Below, in pieces: positions 23,950-63,104 of a stretch of DNA of 64,000 nucleotides. The translations under genes were made by a program, and so were the position numbers. This DNA comes from a virus: IMG/VR virus record IMGVR_UViG_3300032235_001069, positions 1-64,000 of that record. One strand, written 5' to 3'. A model generated the notes under the pieces. It was not told where the DNA came from. It made no database searches and saw only the letters and a list, made by a program, of their open reading frames with translations. How positions within the stretch are numbered: the stretch's first letter is position 1; every line of letters begins with the position of its first letter.

Positions 23950-24002
23950 AGTTATTATAATTTTAAGATTGACTTTTTAACAGATGGTTTTACACTCATT
24001 AT

Positions 24003-54009: not shown

Positions 54010-54030
54010 ACTAGGTAATTTTTGCCTAGT
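54010..54030. repeat. isolated copy of the TAGGCA palindrome
   Basis: ACTAGGTAATTTTTGCCTAGT followed by an A-tract and GGCCAA. Confidence 0.8.
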
Positions 54031-54094
54031 AAATTAAAAAACGTCAAAGCCGAATGGCCAATGAACGTTGGTTTGTATTGGCGTTTGTTACAAA

Positions 54095-54592
54095 TTAACG
54101 ATACGTTAATACGTATAAGGCTAACCAAAGCCAAGTGATATTGTCGGAACCTATATCGTAAAGGATAGTAGAGATCAAGTTAGTCATGTTCTTGGCTTGC
54201 TTTATCGTCTCAACAGAAGCGGAGAAGTCCAAAATGTTATCTGGGGACATGTAAATAGAGTCAAAAGCACTTACTTGCCCACTCGACTCACTGCCACGTA
54301 AAGCATCAAGATTATTAGAATTACCATCATATTGTTGGTTATTATAAGCCGACGCTAACGCCTTTTCCACAGGTTCGACAGGATACGCCAAACAAACGAT
54401 CTTATCAGCAGCAATAGGAGAAGAAACAATAGTAGAATGAGAGACAGAAGAAATAGAAGAAGAAGATAAAGAAGATGGTAAAGATGAAAGATTAGATGAA
54501 GAAGATGATTTTGAATGAGTGGAACTTTCACGTTTGCCTAACTCTCCCGTTTGTTTTATTTTACTCCTTTCACTAGGCTTTAATCTGCTCAT
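54095..54592 (-). CDS. doubtful Ser-rich ORF between the palindromes
   Basis: open frame with a low-complexity Ser tract and hydrophobic C-terminus. Confidence 0.3.
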   Translation of the reverse strand: MSRLKPSERSKIKQTGELGKRESSTHSKSSSSSNLSSLPSSLSSSSISSVSHSTIVSSPIAADKIVCLAYPVEPVEKALASAYNNQQYDGNSNNLDALRGSESSGQVSAFDSIYMSPDNILDFSASVETIKQAKNMTNLISTILYDIGSDNITWLWLALYVLTYR

Positions 54593-54662
54593 GCAACGAT
54601 TTACACGGACGTAGAACCGACGAGACAAAATATTTTGTAACTTATTGCAGACACAAAACTTA

Positions 54663-54925
54663 CAAAAATTTCTTACGATGGGCCAAATAATACAACTAGG
54701 CAAATTTTGCCTAGTAGCTCAAAAAAACCCAAAAAATTTCATGACCTCGGCCAAATAAAGAGGTAGGCAATTTTTGCCTAGTACGTAAAAAACTCAAAAA
54801 ATTTCATATAATGGGCCAAATAAGCGCCCCTCCCAACTAGGCAAATTTTGCCTAGTAATAAAAAAGCAAAAAATTCCCAGCCGCCAGGCAAATAAAGACC
54901 AGGGCAACTAGGCAATTTTTGCCTA
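54663..54925. repeat. four ~70-bp tandem units each ending in a palindrome
   Basis: CAAAAA(A)TTYC-N8-GGCCAAATAA-N4-12-TAGGCAAWTTTTGCCTA; palindrome cores start at 54697, 54764, 54838, 54909. Confidence 0.9.
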
Positions 54926-55150
54926 CCATCTAGTTATCGCCACCGATATGGTTAGTCACACAATTTCTTTTGTTTCTATGCTATTATATAGTAACACAAA
55001 TCTAAACGTATTTCGCGCAATCAAATCAAATCAAACGTTAGGTAAGACAATCAAACAAAAACAAAAAGAATCTTGTTAGTTAATTTTTTATCATTTAAAT
55101 GCGCCAAGGGGCTTGACAACCTCACTTCTTTCTGATTTAATCTCTCCCAT

Positions 55151-55450
55151 ATGAATACCCAATCCTATGCTCAAACCGTAAACGAAACTGCAGCAACCAA
55201 GCGTGGACGCGGTCGCCCATCTGGTTCCAACAGTTTTGCAAACGCACAAATCAAACAGTTGCTTACACTTCTGTCTGAAGATGCAGTTATCCCAGTGTCG
55301 CGCATCTGGTTACGTGATACATTTGGTGCGATTGCAGAGCCCGCACCTGTCATCATCAACACGGCCAATAACACTGTAGTAGAAAACCAAACAGAAGAAA
55401 AAATTCAGTTCCACATCGAAAAATTTGAGGACGCGAATTGTCCTTTTTAA
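55151..55450 (+). CDS. AT-hook DNA-binding protein
   Basis: KRGRGRPSG; TTGACA promoter just upstream. Confidence 0.7.
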   Translation: MNTQSYAQTVNETAATKRGRGRPSGSNSFANAQIKQLLTLLSEDAVIPVSRIWLRDTFGAIAEPAPVIINTANNTVVENQTEEKIQFHIEKFEDANCPF

Positions 55451-55486
55451 TTGACATTTAAATTCAACCCCTATATATTTGCTCAC

Positions 55487-56410
55487 ATGTTTGACAACCT
55501 CATTGGACAATCCGAAATCAAAGATCAACTGGGCTTCTACTCGAAAGCCTATCAAAAGACTGGTACTGTGCCATTTATATTGCTGAATGGTGCTAAAGGC
55601 TTGGGTAAGACCGAGTTCCTAAAAGCATTCAGCAAGACTATCACCAATAGTGATGGCAAGCCGCGCCCCATGCTGGAACTAAACTCCAGCACAATCAAGA
55701 ACAATACAATGTTCTTTGAGCAGATCTTCCTACCCATCGTGCAGGGAAACGAAGTAACTCTTTTCTTCGATGAGTGCCATGCACTCCCCAACGATCTGGT
55801 GATGGCATTCCCATCCATCCTCAATACAGAACGTACACCTTATAAGGAGTTCAACTGGAGAGAGTACACCTTTACTTTTGATTTCACTAAGATCTCCATG
55901 ATCTTTGCGACTACTGAGTTAGATAAACTATTTCCTCCTCTTAAGGATCGGCTGACTGTTCTTGATTTCAAACCATATAATCAAAATAAGTTAGCCGCAA
56001 TCATCAAGGGTCGCTTGCCAGATGTAGAGTTCGAAGATGGTCTGCTGGAAGAGATTGCCACCACTACCAGAGGTAATGCGCGTGATGCAGTTAAGCGTGC
56101 AAAACAAATTGAGTTGTATTGTGAAACCAATAACTCTAATCTGTTTCTCAAAGATGAGTGGAATGATCTTCGCAAAGTGCTTGGTATCAAACCTTTGGGG
56201 CTTTCTAATACAGAGTTGCAAGTGCTTGAGATTCTTAACACTAGGGGGCCATCTACCCTACAGACTATCGCAGCAGTAACTGGCATGAGTCGTACTGCAA
56301 TCCAGAAGGATGCTGAACTGTATCTCCTACAGCGTGGACTCATGAAGATCAATGGTGTTCGTGAGCTTACCAAAGCAGGATCAGATCTAATCAAACAAAT
56401 GTCAGAGTAG
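55487..56410 (+). CDS. RuvB-like AAA+ ATPase with C-terminal winged helix
   Basis: GAKGLGKT, FFDECH, ATT...PLKDR, RGNARDA, GP...IAA...E.YL...G. Confidence 0.85.
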   Translation: MFDNLIGQSEIKDQLGFYSKAYQKTGTVPFILLNGAKGLGKTEFLKAFSKTITNSDGKPRPMLELNSSTIKNNTMFFEQIFLPIVQGNEVTLFFDECHALPNDLVMAFPSILNTERTPYKEFNWREYTFTFDFTKISMIFATTELDKLFPPLKDRLTVLDFKPYNQNKLAAIIKGRLPDVEFEDGLLEEIATTTRGNARDAVKRAKQIELYCETNNSNLFLKDEWNDLRKVLGIKPLGLSNTELQVLEILNTRGPSTLQTIAAVTGMSRTAIQKDAELYLLQRGLMKINGVRELTKAGSDLIKQMSE

Positions 56411-56457
56411 AGAGTAGTCAAACAGCCCCCCTTCGAGTGAAGGGGGGTAACTCTTTT

Positions 56458-56706
56458 ATGAAAGCGCAATACATCTTCAGACACATAAGCAAGAGAAAGT
56501 CAAGAACTATCTTGTTCCATTGCTTGTATGATCCCAAAACATTGCGCATTATTGCAATGAGTGCATTCAACTTCGACGATGGAGTAGCTAAAGAATGCGA
56601 CTACTCGCTCTTCACCGACGAAGAGCTGAACTACACGCTCGCGTGGCTCGAACTAATGCTAGAGACTAAATCGTGGGAGGAAGATAAGCAGGAAGATAAA
56701 GAATAG
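56458..56706 (+). CDS. hypothetical protein
   Basis: 82 aa after a G/C hairpin. Confidence 0.5.
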   Translation: MKAQYIFRHISKRKSRTILFHCLYDPKTLRIIAMSAFNFDDGVAKECDYSLFTDEELNYTLAWLELMLETKSWEEDKQEDKE

Positions 56707-56794
56707 TCAAGAGTAAAAATTAACAAAAATTATTCTAAATAAGACGAAATAAGTAGGCAAAAACTGCCAGGGGGAGCCCTGGTCAGAAAAGACT

Positions 56795-56825
56795 ACACCC
56801 CACCCTTTCGGGTGAGGTGTTTTTT
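56795..56825. terminator. terminator at the convergence of + and - gene blocks
   Basis: ACACCCCACCC-tttc-GGGTGAGGTGT followed by a T run. Confidence 0.75.
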
Positions 56826-56889
56826 ATTGGGGGGAAATTTATTTACTTTTTATTCTTGCTTGCCAGTGCGAACACAACTAGTAGAACAA

Positions 56890-57444
56890 TTAAGATTTGC
56901 ATTTGCTGGGGGCATATGGCTCTCCTGTTTCTAGGTTGATGAGGACAACGTCGTCGAGATGTCCTCCGTCTTTTGCGTTCTTGGCATAGGTATCAAGCAT
57001 AAGGCTTGGCGTTACATGTCTTGCATATACATAGATCTTGCCACTTGCAACGTTTCTGATTGCCCACTTGGCGTTCTTTGGTACGCAGAGCCACTTGCTG
57101 CTGTCGTAGCATCTCTCGACAGGTATTCCCAGCTTCTTCATCCAAGACTTCCAAGTAGGCCCATGCCCCCAACCCTTGTTAACTTCCCAATCTAAAGCGT
57201 GCGCCCATTCGTGTAAAATAGTTTCTTTTGCTTTTTTTAAGAAGTTCGGGCTGTTCTTGTTTATGTGTATTATGTGGGTGGAAAGCTCGATTCGTTTTGT
57301 CTTTCCATTATCAGATCTCCAAGCCCTGCCCATTACAGTTCTAAGCCTTTTGTTCCATTTGATTTCCCACCCTTCTAGGATGGGATACTGGAGTTTGATC
57401 TGAGCAGAGATGTCTTTGAACAATGTATTTACTTCGGCAATCAT
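56890..57444 (-). CDS. SprT-like metalloprotease
   Basis: WNKRLRTVMGR...IELS...TILHEWAH...GHGPTWK. Confidence 0.85.
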   Translation of the reverse strand: MIAEVNTLFKDISAQIKLQYPILEGWEIKWNKRLRTVMGRAWRSDNGKTKRIELSTHIIHINKNSPNFLKKAKETILHEWAHALDWEVNKGWGHGPTWKSWMKKLGIPVERCYDSSKWLCVPKNAKWAIRNVASGKIYVYARHVTPSLMLDTYAKNAKDGGHLDDVVLINLETGEPYAPSKCKS

Positions 57445-57445
57445 A

Positions 57446-57631
57446 TTAGTCTTCGTTTCTAAATTTAATCTCATCTTGGATGTAGTCAAGCAAATTTAGG
57501 ATACCATCCATATGTTCGCGCATTTCATCTGTCCACTCAATTTTCTCATCCATGAGTTTGTAGAGTGTTTGTTTTTGTTTGTCTAACAGAACTGGACAAA
57601 CTGTTATTTCGATGTCGTACAATTTATTCAT
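57446..57631 (-). CDS. hypothetical protein
   Basis: 61 aa; LLDKQK...GILNLLDYIQD. Confidence 0.55.
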   Translation of the reverse strand: MNKLYDIEITVCPVLLDKQKQTLYKLMDEKIEWTDEMREHMDGILNLLDYIQDEIKFRNED

Positions 57632-58593: not shown

Positions 58594-58691
58594 ATGATAG
58601 CCAGTGTTAGGGAGAATGCAACACTTATTTCAAAAAATATTTACGCACTTGTGCGTAATAACACTTGACAGGGAGCCAGGGCTATCCCTGG
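58594..58691 (-). promoter_or_regulatory. hairpin-promoter module A
   Basis: TTGCAT-16-TATCAT on -; TTACGCACTTGTGCGTAA; TTGACA; CCAGGGCTATCCCTGG. Confidence 0.8.
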
Positions 58692-58714
58692 AACGTAACC
58701 ACCTCATTCTGAGG

Positions 58715-58800
58715 TGGTACGGGGAGTGGGACTCGAACCCACACGCTCTAACGAGCATCAAATTTTAAGTCTGATGTGGCTGCCATTACACCATCCCCGC
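58715..58800 (-). tRNA. tRNA-Leu(TAA)
   Basis: TCAGA-CTTAAAA-TTTGA, long variable arm, CCA. Confidence 0.92.
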
Positions 58801-59226
58801 TTTTCTTTTCTTGTTTCTCCAGTTGTCTGTCAAAGCATGACAGTTGCAACATAAGAGTTGAAGATTTTCAAAATTGTTATTGGTTCTATTTCCATCTACA
58901 TGGTGAAGCTCCAAAGGGATACTATCACTCAACCATTCACTTTGCAAGCATTTTTCGCATTTGTGGCCTTTTTCATTTATTAAATGAGAACGAAGATTCT
59001 TTGTTCTTTTGTAGGAAGACCAATCTTTAATCCTTTGATCTTTGCTCCAAAGTTGACCAGTGAAATGCGACGTTTCTAAATTTAGTTTAGCAATCTTTGT
59101 CTTGACTGTATCAAAGTTTCCACCAGCTTCCTTTAGATCCAAAAATCTAAGGACTTCAGAAATGGATTTGCTTTTCTTAACCGCATTAATCAAATCCTCT
59201 TCTGTGTATCGTCTATACTTTCTCAT
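58786..59226 (-). CDS. HNH homing endonuclease
   Basis: CEKC...LELHHVDGNRTNN..ENLQLLCCNCH. Confidence 0.88.
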   Translation of the reverse strand: MRKYRRYTEEDLINAVKKSKSISEVLRFLDLKEAGGNFDTVKTKIAKLNLETSHFTGQLWSKDQRIKDWSSYKRTKNLRSHLINEKGHKCEKCLQSEWLSDSIPLELHHVDGNRTNNNFENLQLLCCNCHALTDNWRNKKRKAGMV

Positions 59227-59289
59227 GCTTTATTTTACACTAAAAAGGTAGACGAAGAATCAATTTGATTGCGAGACTGCCGAAGAAAG

Positions 59290-59562
59290 TGGGGGAGGTG
59301 GGAATTGAACCCACGACCAAGCGATTATGCTTACTACTATAACTTTCGTTACCAGAATTTCTGTTTGTAGTCTGGACTATGCCTTTACCGTGGTATTTCT
59401 ACTTTAGGTAGGTGATTATAGTCTCTACACGTTCCTCTTTCGAGGCTTCGCTCGACGTTGGGATTTTAAACCGTTCATCGAATTTACACCTTACTAATTA
59501 TTCGTTTCCGAATAATCGACCCATTATTAAGTCGCCTGCTCTTACCTCTGAGCTACTCCCCC
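59290..59562 (-). tRNA. intron-containing tRNA(CAT), probably Ile2; exons 59530-59562 and 59290-59329
   Basis: spliced form GGGGGAG...GGCGA-CT^CAT-AA-TCGCT...CTCCCCCA, 73 nt; arm matches E. coli ileX as recalled. Confidence 0.88.
59330..59529 (-). mobile_element. group I intron, 200 nt, no ORF
   Basis: P1 CGACU/GGUCG with U.G at the splice site, GAGACTA/TAGTCC P7, GAAA tetraloops, terminal G. Confidence 0.88.
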
Positions 59563-59569
59563 TAAAAAC

Positions 59570-59890
59570 TTACAATTCAAAAGCGAGAATGTTATCTGCT
59601 GGAAGAAAGTTCAACTCTGCCTCACCTTCATATAAGGAATATCCTAGCACAGTCAAAGCGAAGACGCAAGCATTATCGTAAGAAAAATCTCGAAAGGAAT
59701 GAATCTCTACACCATCATCTTTGTCCACGATGTAATAGTCTTTAATCTCATCAGACAAAGATTTAGGTTCTACACGAAAGCCCAAATGTGTAAGGGCTTG
59801 TTCTTCAGCGGTTTCCGCTGAATCTTTGTCAATCATTACTTGTTCCTGAAAGGAAGTATCATCTTCGATTAGTGTGTATGGTTCGTGCAT
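59570..59890 (-). CDS. hypothetical acidic protein
   Basis: internal duplication A..ALT.LG(F/Y); start uncertain. Confidence 0.6.
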   Translation of the reverse strand: MHEPYTLIEDDTSFQEQVMIDKDSAETAEEQALTHLGFRVEPKSLSDEIKDYYIVDKDDGVEIHSFRDFSYDNACVFALTVLGYSLYEGEAELNFLPADNILAFEL

Positions 59891-59948
59891 ATTTATTTCT
59901 TTAATGTTAAGCATATTACTACAAGGGTTACGATTAGAGCATCCATAA

Positions 59949-60644
59949 TTAGACATGAATTACAAAGCCCGAATTATCTTTTTTTGCTGGTCCCTTGGCA
60001 CGCAGTCCCACGATTGCGTTCTTTGGATCAAGGAAGCGGAGATCGTTTTCATCTCCGTCAATGACTTTGAAACCTTCGTGTTCTGTTGGCAAGGGTTGAT
60101 CTTTTTTAGTGGAGAAAACAAAAGCTGAATTGTTTCCTTTTGCTAAAGCTGCGAACGATTTAACTTGAGACACTTTAGTCTCTGCGCGTGAAAAAGTCAA
60201 GTGGTAATTTGAAATTGTCAAGTCCAAACGATCAAACAATTTTATGTAATCATAGAACTGCACACCAGAAAAATGCTGGAAAATGTTTTTTCCCTTGTGG
60301 ATAATGTCTTCCCATCTGATATCAGAAGTCAAGTTGAGACGAAACACAGCTTGCAAGCTTTTCTTTGCGGCTGATTTGATTCCTGTCTCAATTTCTTTGA
60401 TTAAATTATCCATGAACAAAGCCTGCTCTTCAAAGAAGCTTTTTGTTTTTTCGATTCGCTGTGGCTGAACCATGACACCCATGCCTGCCAAGTTAAGGCA
60501 AGAATCTGTGCAACCTTTTGATCTGCCTTGACAAACTTCATACCCGCTAATGTTAGCGGGTGCAAAGTGAATGCCAAAGGTTTCGTATCCGAAGGATCTG
60601 CCCTTCAGTGTTTTGTAATTAGCAACGGTGAGTATTTTTTGCAT
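59949..60644 (-). CDS. GP88-like phage protein
   Basis: C-x6-C-x3-CL, RLNLTSDI.W, QFYDY.K, NYHLTFS, DGDENDLRFLD, GLRAKG. Confidence 0.75.
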   Translation of the reverse strand: MQKILTVANYKTLKGRSFGYETFGIHFAPANISGYEVCQGRSKGCTDSCLNLAGMGVMVQPQRIEKTKSFFEEQALFMDNLIKEIETGIKSAAKKSLQAVFRLNLTSDIRWEDIIHKGKNIFQHFSGVQFYDYIKLFDRLDLTISNYHLTFSRAETKVSQVKSFAALAKGNNSAFVFSTKKDQPLPTEHEGFKVIDGDENDLRFLDPKNAIVGLRAKGPAKKDNSGFVIHV

Positions 60645-60649
60645 GACGT

Positions 60650-60770
60650 AAGAATATCACTAGCAAGGGTTCGTGCAACAATTATTTCGCAAAATATTTA
60701 CGCCTTTAGGCGTAATAGTTCTTGACATCCCAGCCAGGGCTACCCCTGGCCCCCACCCGATGGGTGGGGG
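60650..60770 (-). promoter_or_regulatory. hairpin-promoter module B plus GC-rich hairpin
   Basis: TTGCAC...TATTCT on -; TTACGCCTTTAGGCGTAA; TTGACA; CCAGGGCTACCCCTGG. Confidence 0.8.
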
Positions 60771-60823
60771 TCAGCTTCCCGATAGTGTTGGTAGTCAGTT
60801 AAACAAACCAAAAAACAAACCAA

Positions 60824-61078
60824 CTATCTATTTGGAAGAATGGAATTGTCCAAGATTCTGTCAAGGTAGAACATTCCGAAGTGTGGTTGCTCCACCTTAC
60901 CGTTCTTTGCTACTATGTAGAGAGTGACAGCTTCAGGTGGGCAATGGTTAGTTCCACCTTTTGATCCTTTCTTTACGCCAGTACGAACGGTGTAGGTGTT
61001 TGTTTCACCTTTCTTGTTGTGATACTTAATCGAAAAGAACTTTCCGTTTGTTGTTGCGATAATGCGTTTGCCAATCAT
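60824..61078 (-). CDS. small phage protein
   Basis: GKFFSI...KKGE...RTGVKK. Confidence 0.65.
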   Translation of the reverse strand: MIGKRIIATTNGKFFSIKYHNKKGETNTYTVRTGVKKGSKGGTNHCPPEAVTLYIVAKNGKVEQPHFGMFYLDRILDNSILPNR

Positions 61079-61082
61079 AATG

Positions 61083-61334
61083 TTATTCCTCGTCTTCGTC
61101 GTCAAAATCTTCGTCCTCGTCGTCCCAATCATCTGGTTCTGTGGTGTTCATCGCAATGGTGGCGAGCAGATGATCGTAGTCTCCGCTTTGCGCTTCTTCT
61201 AGAACCGCACGAACTTCTTCTTGTGACCAGCCTTGGCGAAGCGCATTGCTTCTCCATGTTCCCATGATCACGAATGCATTGCCATCGAGGCCGACCAACT
61301 GCATCTTAACTTTCTTGGTTTTTGTGTTTTGCAT
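61083..61334 (-). CDS. small phage protein
   Basis: LVGLDGNAF.IMG...SGDYDHLL. Confidence 0.7.
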   Translation of the reverse strand: MQNTKTKKVKMQLVGLDGNAFVIMGTWRSNALRQGWSQEEVRAVLEEAQSGDYDHLLATIAMNTTEPDDWDDEDEDFDDEDEE

Positions 61335-61424
61335 GTCGCTTGTATTGTTTTTTGCTTGGTTGTACGACTCGCAACATTCTGTTGCCCCATCGTAAAGTTT
61401 TTTGATAGGTTACTCCATCAACTT

Positions 61425-61667
61425 TTAGTTGTTTCTTTTTGGAGTCCATACTTTGAGCATAGCCTCATCCTTCATAATGTCAATACCGAATCCTAAAGTC
61501 TGGAAAGTATTTCTGAGAGTGTAGGCTTGGAGTTCAAGAATCTTTTTCATTTCGCTAGTTGACATTGCATCGCCAACAGCTTCCTGCGTAGCCCTGTGGA
61601 ATGCGTAAAGCATTTCACAGAACTGGTTTACCAACGGGGTCAACTCTTCAATAGTGCTTTTGTTCAT
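61425..61667 (-). CDS. hypothetical protein
   Basis: directly below module C. Confidence 0.6.
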   Translation of the reverse strand: MNKSTIEELTPLVNQFCEMLYAFHRATQEAVGDAMSTSEMKKILELQAYTLRNTFQTLGFGIDIMKDEAMLKVWTPKRNN

Positions 61668-61673
61668 GTGAGA

Positions 61674-61790
61674 AGCATATACAGAGCAAACGAATGCGCA
61701 ACATTTATTTCAAAAATATTTACGTCCTTGGACGTAATAGTTGTTGACAGTCCAGCCAGGGGTAGCCCTGGACCCCCGCCTTTCGGCGGG
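61674..61790 (-). promoter_or_regulatory. hairpin-promoter module C
   Basis: TTGCGC...TATGCT on -; TTACGTCCTTGGACGTAA; TTGACA; CCAGGGGTAGCCCTGG. Confidence 0.8.
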
Positions 61791-61808
61791 AGCCCATTCG
61801 TATGGAAA

Positions 61809-62114
61809 TTAATGTGCGACTACTTCTGCTTCGTCGATTTCTATAGAGAAGTCTCCACCACCAAAGGAGAATTCAAGCTCATTACCCGTAAGGGAAACTT
61901 CTTGAGGAAGCCTGCGATCTGTTTTATGGTTAAGTAGAACGCTGTGATCCATCCCATCTTTCCACCTTTCGAGGTGAACATTAGTGGGAACGAAGTGGGA
62001 GACATGATTCCAGAGAATCAATCTTTCTCCCTTTTTGATTGCTCTCTTGACTCTCTCAACGTGAGCGTGTTTGACTTTGATTGTGATGTTGGTGTTTCCA
62101 ATGTTTGTTTGCAT
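61809..62114 (-). CDS. hypothetical protein
   Basis: directly below module D. Confidence 0.6.
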   Translation of the reverse strand: MQTNIGNTNITIKVKHAHVERVKRAIKKGERLILWNHVSHFVPTNVHLERWKDGMDHSVLLNHKTDRRLPQEVSLTGNELEFSFGGGDFSIEIDEAEVVAH

Positions 62115-62120
62115 GTGAGA

Positions 62121-62236
62121 AGCATAGCAAAAGCTCTCATGCGTGCAACAATTTTAATTAAAAAAAATTACGCACCTGTGCGTAATAGTTGTTGACAGGA
62201 AAGCCAGGGCCCTGGACCCCGCCTTGCGGTGGGGTC
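62121..62236 (-). promoter_or_regulatory. hairpin-promoter module D
   Basis: TTGCAC-16-TATGCT on -; TTACGCACCTGTGCGTAA; TTGACA; CCAGGGCCCTGG. Confidence 0.8.
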
Positions 62237-62244
62237 TGGTTCTT

Positions 62245-62454
62245 TTACGCTTGTTTGATTCTCGCCTCTACGAGCATCTCATTGAACTGGTCAAGCACTT
62301 TCTGCTTGTTGCCTCTCAAACCAAACTCCTTTTTGATTTGAGCATATGCGGAACATCCTTTGATCGGATAGATTCCTTTTGTTTCGAGTTTCAGGGCGCT
62401 TGCCAGCATCAGGAGGCGATAAGCGGAGATTTGTTGTGGTGTGTCTAGTGTCAT
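62245..62454 (-). CDS. small phage protein
   Basis: ALKLE.KG...SAYA.IKKEFGLRGNK.KVL. Confidence 0.65.
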   Translation of the reverse strand: MTLDTPQQISAYRLLMLASALKLETKGIYPIKGCSAYAQIKKEFGLRGNKQKVLDQFNEMLVEARIKQA

Positions 62455-62455
62455 A

Positions 62456-62659
62456 TTAGGTGTAGCATACTGGGTGGATGTCATTCCTGCAACCATTATA
62501 TTTTCTGTTCATCATAATGGAATGGGTGTGCATGACTCTTTTGAGCCTCTGCTTGGATTCTGTCTTGACCTTCTTCAACTTGGAAAGCTCCATCTGCAGA
62601 TAGGTAATCTCATCAATGCTGAGACTTTTTGCGGCTTCAATGATTTGTTTTTTATTCAT
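62456..62659 (-). CDS. hypothetical protein
   Basis: 67 aa in the cassette. Confidence 0.5.
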   Translation of the reverse strand: MNKKQIIEAAKSLSIDEITYLQMELSKLKKVKTESKQRLKRVMHTHSIMMNRKYNGCRNDIHPVCYT

Positions 62660-62664
62660 AAGAA

Positions 62665-63000
62665 TTAGCGAAAGACTCTTGTCAAGTGATTATTGACACC
62701 GTTCTTGAAAAGCTCATAGTCAACGCAGTCAACCGCATCCAACTTGTACCCACCGATATTCCATTCAAACAAAACGTCTGGGCTGGATGGTACACGCTTC
62801 CATGCGTAGATGGTGGCGACTGTATCATTGGGGAACTTTAAGCGCCATTCGATGTTAACTTTTTCGCTTTCATCGATTGGATTATTATGCTTGTCAGGCG
62901 CACCGAATACAGCAACCAATTGGTCGTATGTGCATGAGATGTAACCTTTGAGCGAGGTTCCGTTGATGAGTGGCGTTCTTCTAACTGTTGTAGTTGTCAT
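62665..63000 (-). CDS. conserved small phage protein
   Basis: GTSLKG...YDQLVAVFG.P...KV..EW...ATIY.WK...WNIGG. Confidence 0.7.
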   Translation of the reverse strand: MTTTTVRRTPLINGTSLKGYISCTYDQLVAVFGAPDKHNNPIDESEKVNIEWRLKFPNDTVATIYAWKRVPSSPDVLFEWNIGGYKLDAVDCVDYELFKNGVNNHLTRVFR

Positions 63001-63007
63001 GGATAGA

Positions 63008-63104
63008 AAGATAGCACAGGAAAGAGTGCGTGCAACTTATTTTTCAAAAATAATTACGCCCTTGGGCGTAATAGTGCTTGACAGATCCCCAGGGCTACCC
63101 CTGG
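63008..63104 (-). promoter_or_regulatory. hairpin-promoter module E
   Basis: TTGCAC...TATCTT on -; TTACGCCCTTGGGCGTAA; TTGACA; CCAGGGCTACCCCTGG. Confidence 0.8.

Follow-up and report, generated by a model that had tools for sequence, protein, structure and literature searches.

The DNA examined here, which we call the window, is the first 64 kb (64,000 nucleotides) of IMGVR_UViG_3300032235_001069, an 85,692-bp IMG/VR phage record with a CheckV completeness of 59%. At positions 54010 to 56832 of the window, a small gene for an AT-hook protein lies directly 5′ of a gene for a divergent RuvB-like AAA+ ATPase, and both are preceded by a tandem array of promoter-like boxes and TAGGCA-type palindromes. 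We refer to the two proteins as the adaptor (the partner, when its family is meant) and the motor. The locus was compared with a set of 29 related loci, 7 close and 22 distant, among which L005 is the nearest relative (96%). Our reading, to which we give an even chance, is that two separable things meet here: an early adaptor-motor pair that is free of RuvA, and a palindrome array that is regulatory DNA and not a substrate of the motor. The features on which this reading depends are the following.

54010-54030, no strand assigned: lone imperfect 21-bp palindrome, ACTAGGTAATTTTTGCCTAGT.
54655-54929, plus strand: tandem array of four cassettes of 67-74 bp, each made of A-tracts, a bipartite box, a variable linker of 4-13 nt and a palindrome.
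54664-54690, 54732-54758, 54797-54823 and 54869-54895: the bipartite boxes of the array, CAAAAAATT-N12/13-CAAATAA.
54695-54715, 54762-54782, 54836-54856 and 54907-54927: the 21-bp palindromes of the array.
54930-55112, no strand assigned: AT-rich non-coding spacer from the array to the adaptor promoter; a 43-aa open reading frame (ORF) within it is frame-shifted in L005.
55113-55141, plus strand: sigma-70-type promoter of the adaptor gene, TTGACA-17-TTTAAT, 9 nt from the ATG.
55151-55450, plus strand: adaptor gene, 99 aa, with a KRGRGRP hook, a core ending in VPVSxxWL, an acidic linker and a C-terminal EKIQFHIEKF strand.
55451-55479, plus strand: sigma-70-type promoter of the RuvB-like gene, TTGACA-17-TATATT, 7 nt from the ATG, scoring 11/12 and conserved in L005-L008.
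55487-56410, plus strand: gene for the divergent RuvB-like AAA+ ATPase, 307 aa, with Walker A/B motifs, arginine finger, sensor 2, presensor-1 beta-hairpin and a C-terminal winged helix.

RuvB is a textbook DNA motor whose loading is thought to depend on RuvA. The ORF of the RuvB-like protein truly starts with the ATG at 55487 and runs to 56410. Its product matches both Pfam RuvB_N and RuvB_C, phmmer aligns residues 2-289 with the RuvB of PDB entry 3pfi (E=1e-16), and the stretches GAKGLGKT, FFDE, PLKDRL and RGNARDA line up with RuvB motifs. The AlphaFold2 model has a predicted local distance difference test (pLDDT) score of 95 and contains strands at residues 119-124 and 127-132, corresponding to the presensor-1 beta-hairpin, while a Foldseek search with this model returned RuvB (8efv, 7pbl) as the best match, with a template modelling (TM) score of ~0.8, well above clamp loaders. 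Across 38 diverse members of the motor family, G38/G40/K41, D95/E96, R155 and R199 are unchanged. The scores against the NCBIfam RuvB equivalogs are far under the cut-offs (85.4 bits vs 282 for NF000868 and 79.7 vs 299 for TIGR00635), and the protein is thus assigned to a distinct RuvB-like family and is not an orthologue. This family comprises 277 clusters at 50% identity (E<1e-30), and near-identical motor proteins are encoded on contigs of 146-157 kb. Judged from its sequence, the motor is a full-length RuvB homologue, very divergent, with intact catalytic motifs and a predicted branch-migration activity. A collection of 50,697 phage records yielded motor homologues of at most 28% identity and no match to the DNA of the locus; a 682-aa ORF adjoining the terminase gene of the record, portal-sized and without a family match, had no match there either.

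The adaptor carries KRGRGRP at residues 17-23, a GRP core with basic flanks as expected of an AT-hook. The Pfam AT_hook profile reaches E=0.23 only, below its threshold, which we attribute to the shortness of the motif, and RGRP(K/A)G is kept in 17 of the 21 aligned partners. Their alignment falls into four parts: the N-terminal RGRP(K)G hook, a core of the form I.Y..L...VG.K..V.VSK.WL, a variable acidic linker and a C-terminal KIEYxLTxF. At four loci, a CxxC...CxxC ribbon located after the core substitutes for the AT-hook. In the sequence atlas, the neighbours of the adaptor are viral-only clusters without names. By these alignments the partner is a conserved phage-only family, built of an AT-hook or a putative zinc ribbon, a short core and a predicted C-terminal KIEYxLTxF strand.

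The two genes form a conserved pair that is inherited together. The partner gene lies directly 5′ of the motor gene in 27/29 loci (7/7 close, 20/22 distant), the two ORFs often overlap, with the partner running over the start codon of the motor, and the pairwise identities of partner and motor correlate (r=0.82). The earlier note had found no ruvA or ruvC in the window, and this extends further: RuvA_N, RuvA_C and RuvC are all missing from the whole 85.7-kb record, from three relatives of 100% CheckV completeness and from one that is 87% complete. With the pair conserved and RuvA and RuvC not found even in complete relatives, an AT-hook adaptor that replaces RuvA is a reasonable reading. This gives good support to a module of adaptor and motor that does without RuvA, and its two proteins are predicted to interact physically; we infer that they form a complex with a role in recombination. 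In the relatives the pair lies 47-118 kb from the DnaB-type helicase, a distance that is uninformative for or against such a role. Natural fusions of adaptor and motor were considered and discarded, as the 383-aa homologues only have an unrelated N-terminal extension.

Each of the two genes was also proposed to have its own sigma-70-type promoter, and both promoters are present, with positions kept in relatives. That of the adaptor gene escapes the scan rule, yet its position is retained, and a TTGAC-type -35 box lies ~37 nt 5′ of the partner ATG in 16/16 loci inspected. Because the promoters stop only 7-9 nt from the ATG, the mRNAs would be near-leaderless. Sigma-70 consensus promoters at window positions 23969, 29840, 39951, 55113 and 55451 all stop 5-9 nt 5′ of an ATG and lack a Shine-Dalgarno sequence, a layout that suggests leaderless early mRNAs and that recurs ahead of the partner gene in every relative inspected.

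The module resembles the RuvA-RuvB complex (E. coli; T. thermophilus 1IXR/1IXS; the 7PBL series) in the three-domain architecture of RuvB, in all ATPase motifs, the presensor-1 beta-hairpin and the winged helix, and in the placement of a small DNA-binding partner gene directly 5′ of the motor, as for ruvA. It differs in that the phage motor has ~20-25% identity and reaches 80-85 bits vs cut-offs of 282-299, that the partner is not RuvA but a mostly disordered AT-hook or zinc-ribbon protein, that RuvC is not found, and that the pair is phage-borne and has early sigma-70 promoters. Eukaryotic HMGA-type proteins, which bind AT tracts and four-way junctions, share with the adaptor an RGRP core with basic flanks, intrinsic disorder and an acidic tail. 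In contrast to HMGA, the phage adaptor has one hook instead of three, belongs to a bacterial virus, carries an extra conserved core and C-terminal strand, and has a Pfam motif that is sub-threshold.

The array is a different matter. TAGGCAA-N3-TTGCCTA occurs without mismatch at 54697, 54764, 54838 and 54909 and with one mismatch at 54012; with up to two mismatches, the window holds 6 matches vs 0.32 expected, a number reached in 0 of 100 shuffles. Two further copies beyond the window, at 66335 and 66376, bring the phage total to eight. As DNA hairpins, the array palindromes have folding energies of -5.7 to -8.3 kcal/mol. The earlier note had regarded the palindrome array as the substrate of the motor and had proposed to look for the co-occurrence of palindromes, AT-hook gene and RuvB-like gene in relatives. 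The gene pair recurs, as described above, but the palindromes do not: only this phage and L005 (2/29) have them. The note had named a lack of such linkage in relatives as grounds for refutation; by this standard the array is not supported as a substrate, and the same palindrome is found in bacteria as a flagellar operator.

Searched against 185,579 species genomes, the 21-mer had 8 exact matches, vs ~0.3 expected as estimated from the size of the collection, and a sample of 401 Alphaproteobacteria added five more genomes. The carriers are Alphaproteobacteria, with a Lake Mendota MAG among them, and a small number of other bacteria. Ten of the 13 bacterial sites lie 70-350 bp 5′ of flagellar genes (fliF in 7, flagellin in 2, fliI/fliJ in 1), and each bacterial genome has 1-3 sites only. 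In L038, two copies 42 bp apart lie ~65 nt 5′ of a canonical sigma-54 promoter (TGGCACGCTTTTCGCA) ahead of flagellin. A gene for a sigma-54 activator was found 4.2-5.2 kb downstream of the site, on the same strand, in 4/4 fliF operons checked; the fliF-flbD operon of Caulobacter is organised in this way. FlbD is reported to repress PfliF, to bind class III/IV flagellar promoters and to activate sigma-54 class III/IV promoters (PMC4083442). As in the FlbD/ftr system of Caulobacter, the bacterial palindrome is a dyad site placed at fliF-operon promoters and 5′ of a sigma-54 flagellin promoter, and the fliF operons carry a sigma-54 activator gene. Unlike in that system, the phage site is present in eight copies, four of them in tandem, and has neither a sigma-54 promoter nor a flagellar gene close to it; binding of FlbD to it is presumed. 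In all likelihood, the palindromes are sites at which a flagellar regulator of the host binds; in bacteria they fit the binding site of a sigma-54 activator/repressor of the FlbD type. A flagellar operator in a phage points to a flagellated host with such a regulator, and the host of this phage is probably a flagellated, FlbD-using alphaproteobacterium. No DUF1153 or Fis-type helix-turn-helix protein is encoded in the phage record. The DNA runs that contain the stretch are lake and freshwater metagenomes.

The element that does travel with the pair is the bipartite box. Alignment of eight units from this phage and L005 shows invariant boxes and palindrome arms with variable spacers, arranged in three conserved blocks: A-tracts followed by CAAAAAATT, then (G)CAAATAA at a fixed distance of 12-13 nt, then the palindrome arms after a linker of 4-13 nt. 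All 7 matches to the box in the window lie in the array (0.12 expected), and in a 112-kb relative 6/6 matches fall within 720 bp 5′ of the pair. Every close relative has 3-8 boxes 5′ of the partner gene, with an invariant right half and a left half that is specific to the subclade. The spacing of the boxes is regular here (67-74 bp) and irregular in relatives (51-410 bp), and the AT-rich spacer is present. In L006 and L007, a CCAGGGG hairpin and then a U-tract terminator come after a box, an arrangement that resembles a small transcription unit, and L009 and L011 have small conserved ORFs between the boxes. A sigma-70 scan does not pick up CAAAAAATT-N12/13-CAAATAA, and DnaA boxes occur at chance level. 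The box cluster would be either a binding and autoregulatory site of the adaptor, whose AT-hook, being invariant, would go well with a CAAATAA that is invariant and AT-rich too, or a specialised set of promoters. A CRISPR or RNA anti-CRISPR array was rejected: the "spacers" are 67-81% identical to each other and contain the conserved box, and there was no Rfam match.

The remaining features of the locus flank the pair and the array.

54095-54592, minus strand: serine-rich ORF, 165 aa, between palindrome copies, without a Pfam or PHROG family.
56425-56448, plus strand: terminator-like hairpin 3′ of the RuvB-like gene.
56458-56706, plus strand: 82-aa ORF found otherwise only in the nearest relative, outside the conserved module.
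56725-56832, no strand assigned: convergent terminator module (z -2.4) where the RuvB operon meets a leftward SprT gene.
56725-56752, 56754-56770, 56767-56782 and 56795-56820, parts of this module: a fifth box, a degenerate TAGGCA stretch, a CCAGGG..CCCTGG hairpin, and a bidirectional terminator hairpin with a T-run.

The pair had been described as bracketed by palindromes. The five left copies are as described, and the letters of the degenerate TAGGCA stretch at 56754 are as noted, but this right-hand stretch forms no hairpin of its own and is part of a two-hairpin convergent terminator, so the bracketing is only superficial. To its right, a gene for an SprT-like metalloprotease (window 56890-57489, leftward) converges on the RuvB operon and adjoins the pair in L005-L008 (41-94% identity).

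On the left, the locus borders a plastic region. Homology to L005 breaks off precisely at the right-hand end of the palindrome at 54010-54030 and is regained at 54530, and the body of the serine-rich ORF between these points is replaced in L005 (38% identity vs 85-98% for neighbour genes). Between other relatives, the left edge of the box cluster is likewise where homology sets in. The centre of the lone palindrome is flipped between the two phages (TTT at window 54012-54028, AAA at L005 2577-2593) with the same arms, in a region that is 92% identical; such a change is what hairpin template-switching, and not three separate substitutions, would be expected to produce. The contigs of L008, L009 and L011 (3/7 independent relatives) end ~0.1-1.1 kb 5′ of the box cluster, perhaps because the genome physically ends there or a terminal repeat has its boundary there.

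Further repeats occur elsewhere in the record and in distant relatives. At least ten stereotyped intergenic modules (window 58676-63104 and record 64309-66337) lie between leftward small genes, tRNAs and HNH genes. On the plus strand they are ordered as TTATTTC, a TTACGCnnnnGCGTAA palindrome, TTGACA, a CCAGGGnnnnCCCTGG hairpin and a variable GC-rich second hairpin; on the minus strand, GAAATAA-N3-TTGCA is found ~40 nt 5′ of each gene and resembles a phage-specific promoter. The CCAGGGG hairpin is common to relatives, and at 66322 the TAGGCA palindrome takes the "second hairpin" slot. Directly after two such palindromes, the non-coding record positions 66390-66512 hold ~15 overlapping GCATGC/CATGCA motifs (e.g. 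CGCATGCA, CCATGCA). Distant relatives (L014, L028, L031) have arrays 1-3 kb 5′ of the pair: five 69-bp tandem units directly after a TnpB/Cas12f-like gene in L014 (2421-4053), and, in L028 (1853-2210) and L031, four 89-bp units that each combine a CCAAATAA motif with a long hairpin. We do not count the L014 array as part of the pair locus, as its position after the TnpB-like gene makes a separate mobile insertion probable, and we claim no array from the CCAAATAA motif in the distant clade, where it is often inside coding starts. The record also encodes lambda-type tail genes, eight tRNA genes, HNH genes, PhoH, an ECF-like sigma factor, an ERCC4 nuclease and an intein-bearing terminase; the large terminase subunit gene (record 74443-77637, beyond the window) is split by an intein with a LAGLIDADG homing endonuclease.

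Taken as a mechanism, the adaptor-motor pair would work as follows. The small disordered adaptor would bind DNA through its N-terminal AT-hook, or through the zinc ribbon in some relatives, and would dock on a RuvB-type hexameric motor for double-stranded DNA by way of its conserved core, its C-terminal KIEYxLTxF strand or both. It would thereby substitute for RuvA and provide the phage with its own branch-migration or DNA-translocation machine. Separately, the palindromes most likely recruit or titrate the host flagellar regulator, and so either gate phage promoters or act as a decoy; each stands just 3′ of a promoter-like box, a position that would be suited to repression. We found no paper on a phage pair of AT-hook and RuvB proteins in the literature.

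Several observations weigh against this reading. The AlphaFold2 model of the adaptor is mostly disordered, with two short helices, and the protein has no detectable similarity to RuvA (no RuvA chain at E<=10 in a PDB profile search). Pfam RuvA_C likewise matched none of the 21 partner members, and hhalign gave a probability of 0.1% for the partner family against E. coli RuvA. An adaptor that is itself a miniature RuvA was rejected on the PDB profile, Pfam and hhalign results; there was no structural match, the model being too disordered to inform. RuvA of the host could still serve the motor. On the side of the array, no sigma-54 promoter lies near it, a few candidates being located elsewhere, so that classical enhancer use is unlikely, and the assignment of the palindrome to FlbD comes from gene context and the literature. 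Two metatranscriptome runs contain short contigs over the gene pair, and one over the last array unit, although such contigs from RNA libraries cannot show starts, strand or true transcription.

Other explanations treat the array and the pair differently. The one first proposed, in which the A-tract/palindrome units serve the AT-hook protein as loading sites for the RuvB-like ATPase, which would extrude or melt cruciforms at an origin, packaging or injection-control site, draws on perfect, hairpin-capable palindromes with AT-rich centres and flanking A-tracts, located 220 bp from the pair in a phage where RuvA was not found. We regard it as highly improbable: the palindromes are absent at 27/29 pair loci, in bacteria the same palindrome is a single-copy operator in genomes without either protein, and the right-hand "palindrome" belongs to the terminator module. 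If the CAAATAA box cluster rather than the palindrome were the site of action, it might be an iteron-type origin or another loading site in cis, with adaptor and motor as initiator and remodeller. Its direct repeats are limited to one locus adjoining the pair, the left half-box varies by subclade around a fixed right half as if it co-evolved with a binding protein, an AT-rich spacer adjoins the array, and the contigs of 3/7 relatives end within ~0.1-1.1 kb of the cluster. Such an origin is nevertheless decidedly unlikely given the irregular spacing of the boxes in relatives (51-410 bp), with small conserved ORFs or hairpin-terminator units between them, the lack of DnaA-box enrichment, a replicative helicase 47-118 kb away in relatives and a motor that is a RuvB homologue, not of the DnaA, Orc or DnaC type. 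The contig ends also bear on an injection stop as in T5, where the repeats would halt the entry of DNA and the early motor and adaptor would pull in the remaining genome. The injection stop signal (iss) region of T5 is a large non-coding stretch full of direct repeats and palindromes; it is conserved, whereas the coding region next to it is not (10.1101/866236). The phage locus likewise has non-coding direct repeats and palindromes beside a hypervariable, unconserved coding region; the phage, which has tRNA and HNH blocks, is siphovirus-like, its gene pair is preceded by early sigma-70 promoters, and some contigs end near the cluster. Unlike in T5, the locus lacks DnaA boxes and its palindromes are not conserved in the related phages; these contigs have no recorded terminal repeats, and in this record the locus is mid-contig, which leaves a T5-like stop extremely improbable. 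The origin and T5-like readings of the box cluster are both possible ones, without positive support.

An explanation of another kind detaches the array from flagella and from the pair alike. Promoter/stem-loop (PeSL) cassettes of T4-type phages (PMC2839356, PMC4122927) combine a short intergenic promoter-like box with a stem-loop in a hypervariable early region, at recombination breakpoints between close relatives. The array might represent mobile cassettes of this kind, produced by modular shuffling at the edge of the hypervariable early region, with the boxes as promoters of short hairpin transcripts and the palindromes as their stem-loops. The spacing within the box is fixed while its distance to the hairpin varies, L006 and L007 have a box before a hairpin and U-tract terminator, the palindrome takes the second-hairpin slot of a module elsewhere, and homology breaks at the left edge of the cluster and once exactly at a palindrome. 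Stem-loops and a location at breakpoints (54030 and the left edge of the cluster) are thus present, whereas the strong sigma-70 early promoter of such a cassette is not: the phage boxes depart from the sigma-70 consensus. They are also in tandem without genes between them, and their stem-loop is a borrowed bacterial operator. We consider shuffled cassettes unlikely; they would leave the letter-perfect match to a bacterial flagellar operator unexplained.

The separation of a RuvA-free adaptor-motor pair from an array of host operators can also be put in a more specific form, which we advance tentatively: a large phage-only RuvB family would dispense with RuvA by using a disordered AT-hook or zinc-ribbon adaptor that docks by its short C-terminal strand, and FlbD-type flagellar operators of the host, stacked in the early control region of this phage, would sense the flagellar or cell-cycle state of the host or titrate its regulator. 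If this is true, the pair would be a new minimal design of a branch-migration or DNA-translocation machine, and the array would be a transcription-factor decoy in a virus, through which flagellum synthesis would be shut down as genome copy number rises. A widespread viral lineage (277 clusters) that pairs RuvB with an unrelated tiny adaptor would show how an AAA+ DNA motor can be retargeted, and the pair would offer a simple system for the study of motor loading. The multiplied flagellar operator, in turn, suggests a route by which a phage may sense or sabotage the motility programmes of its host.

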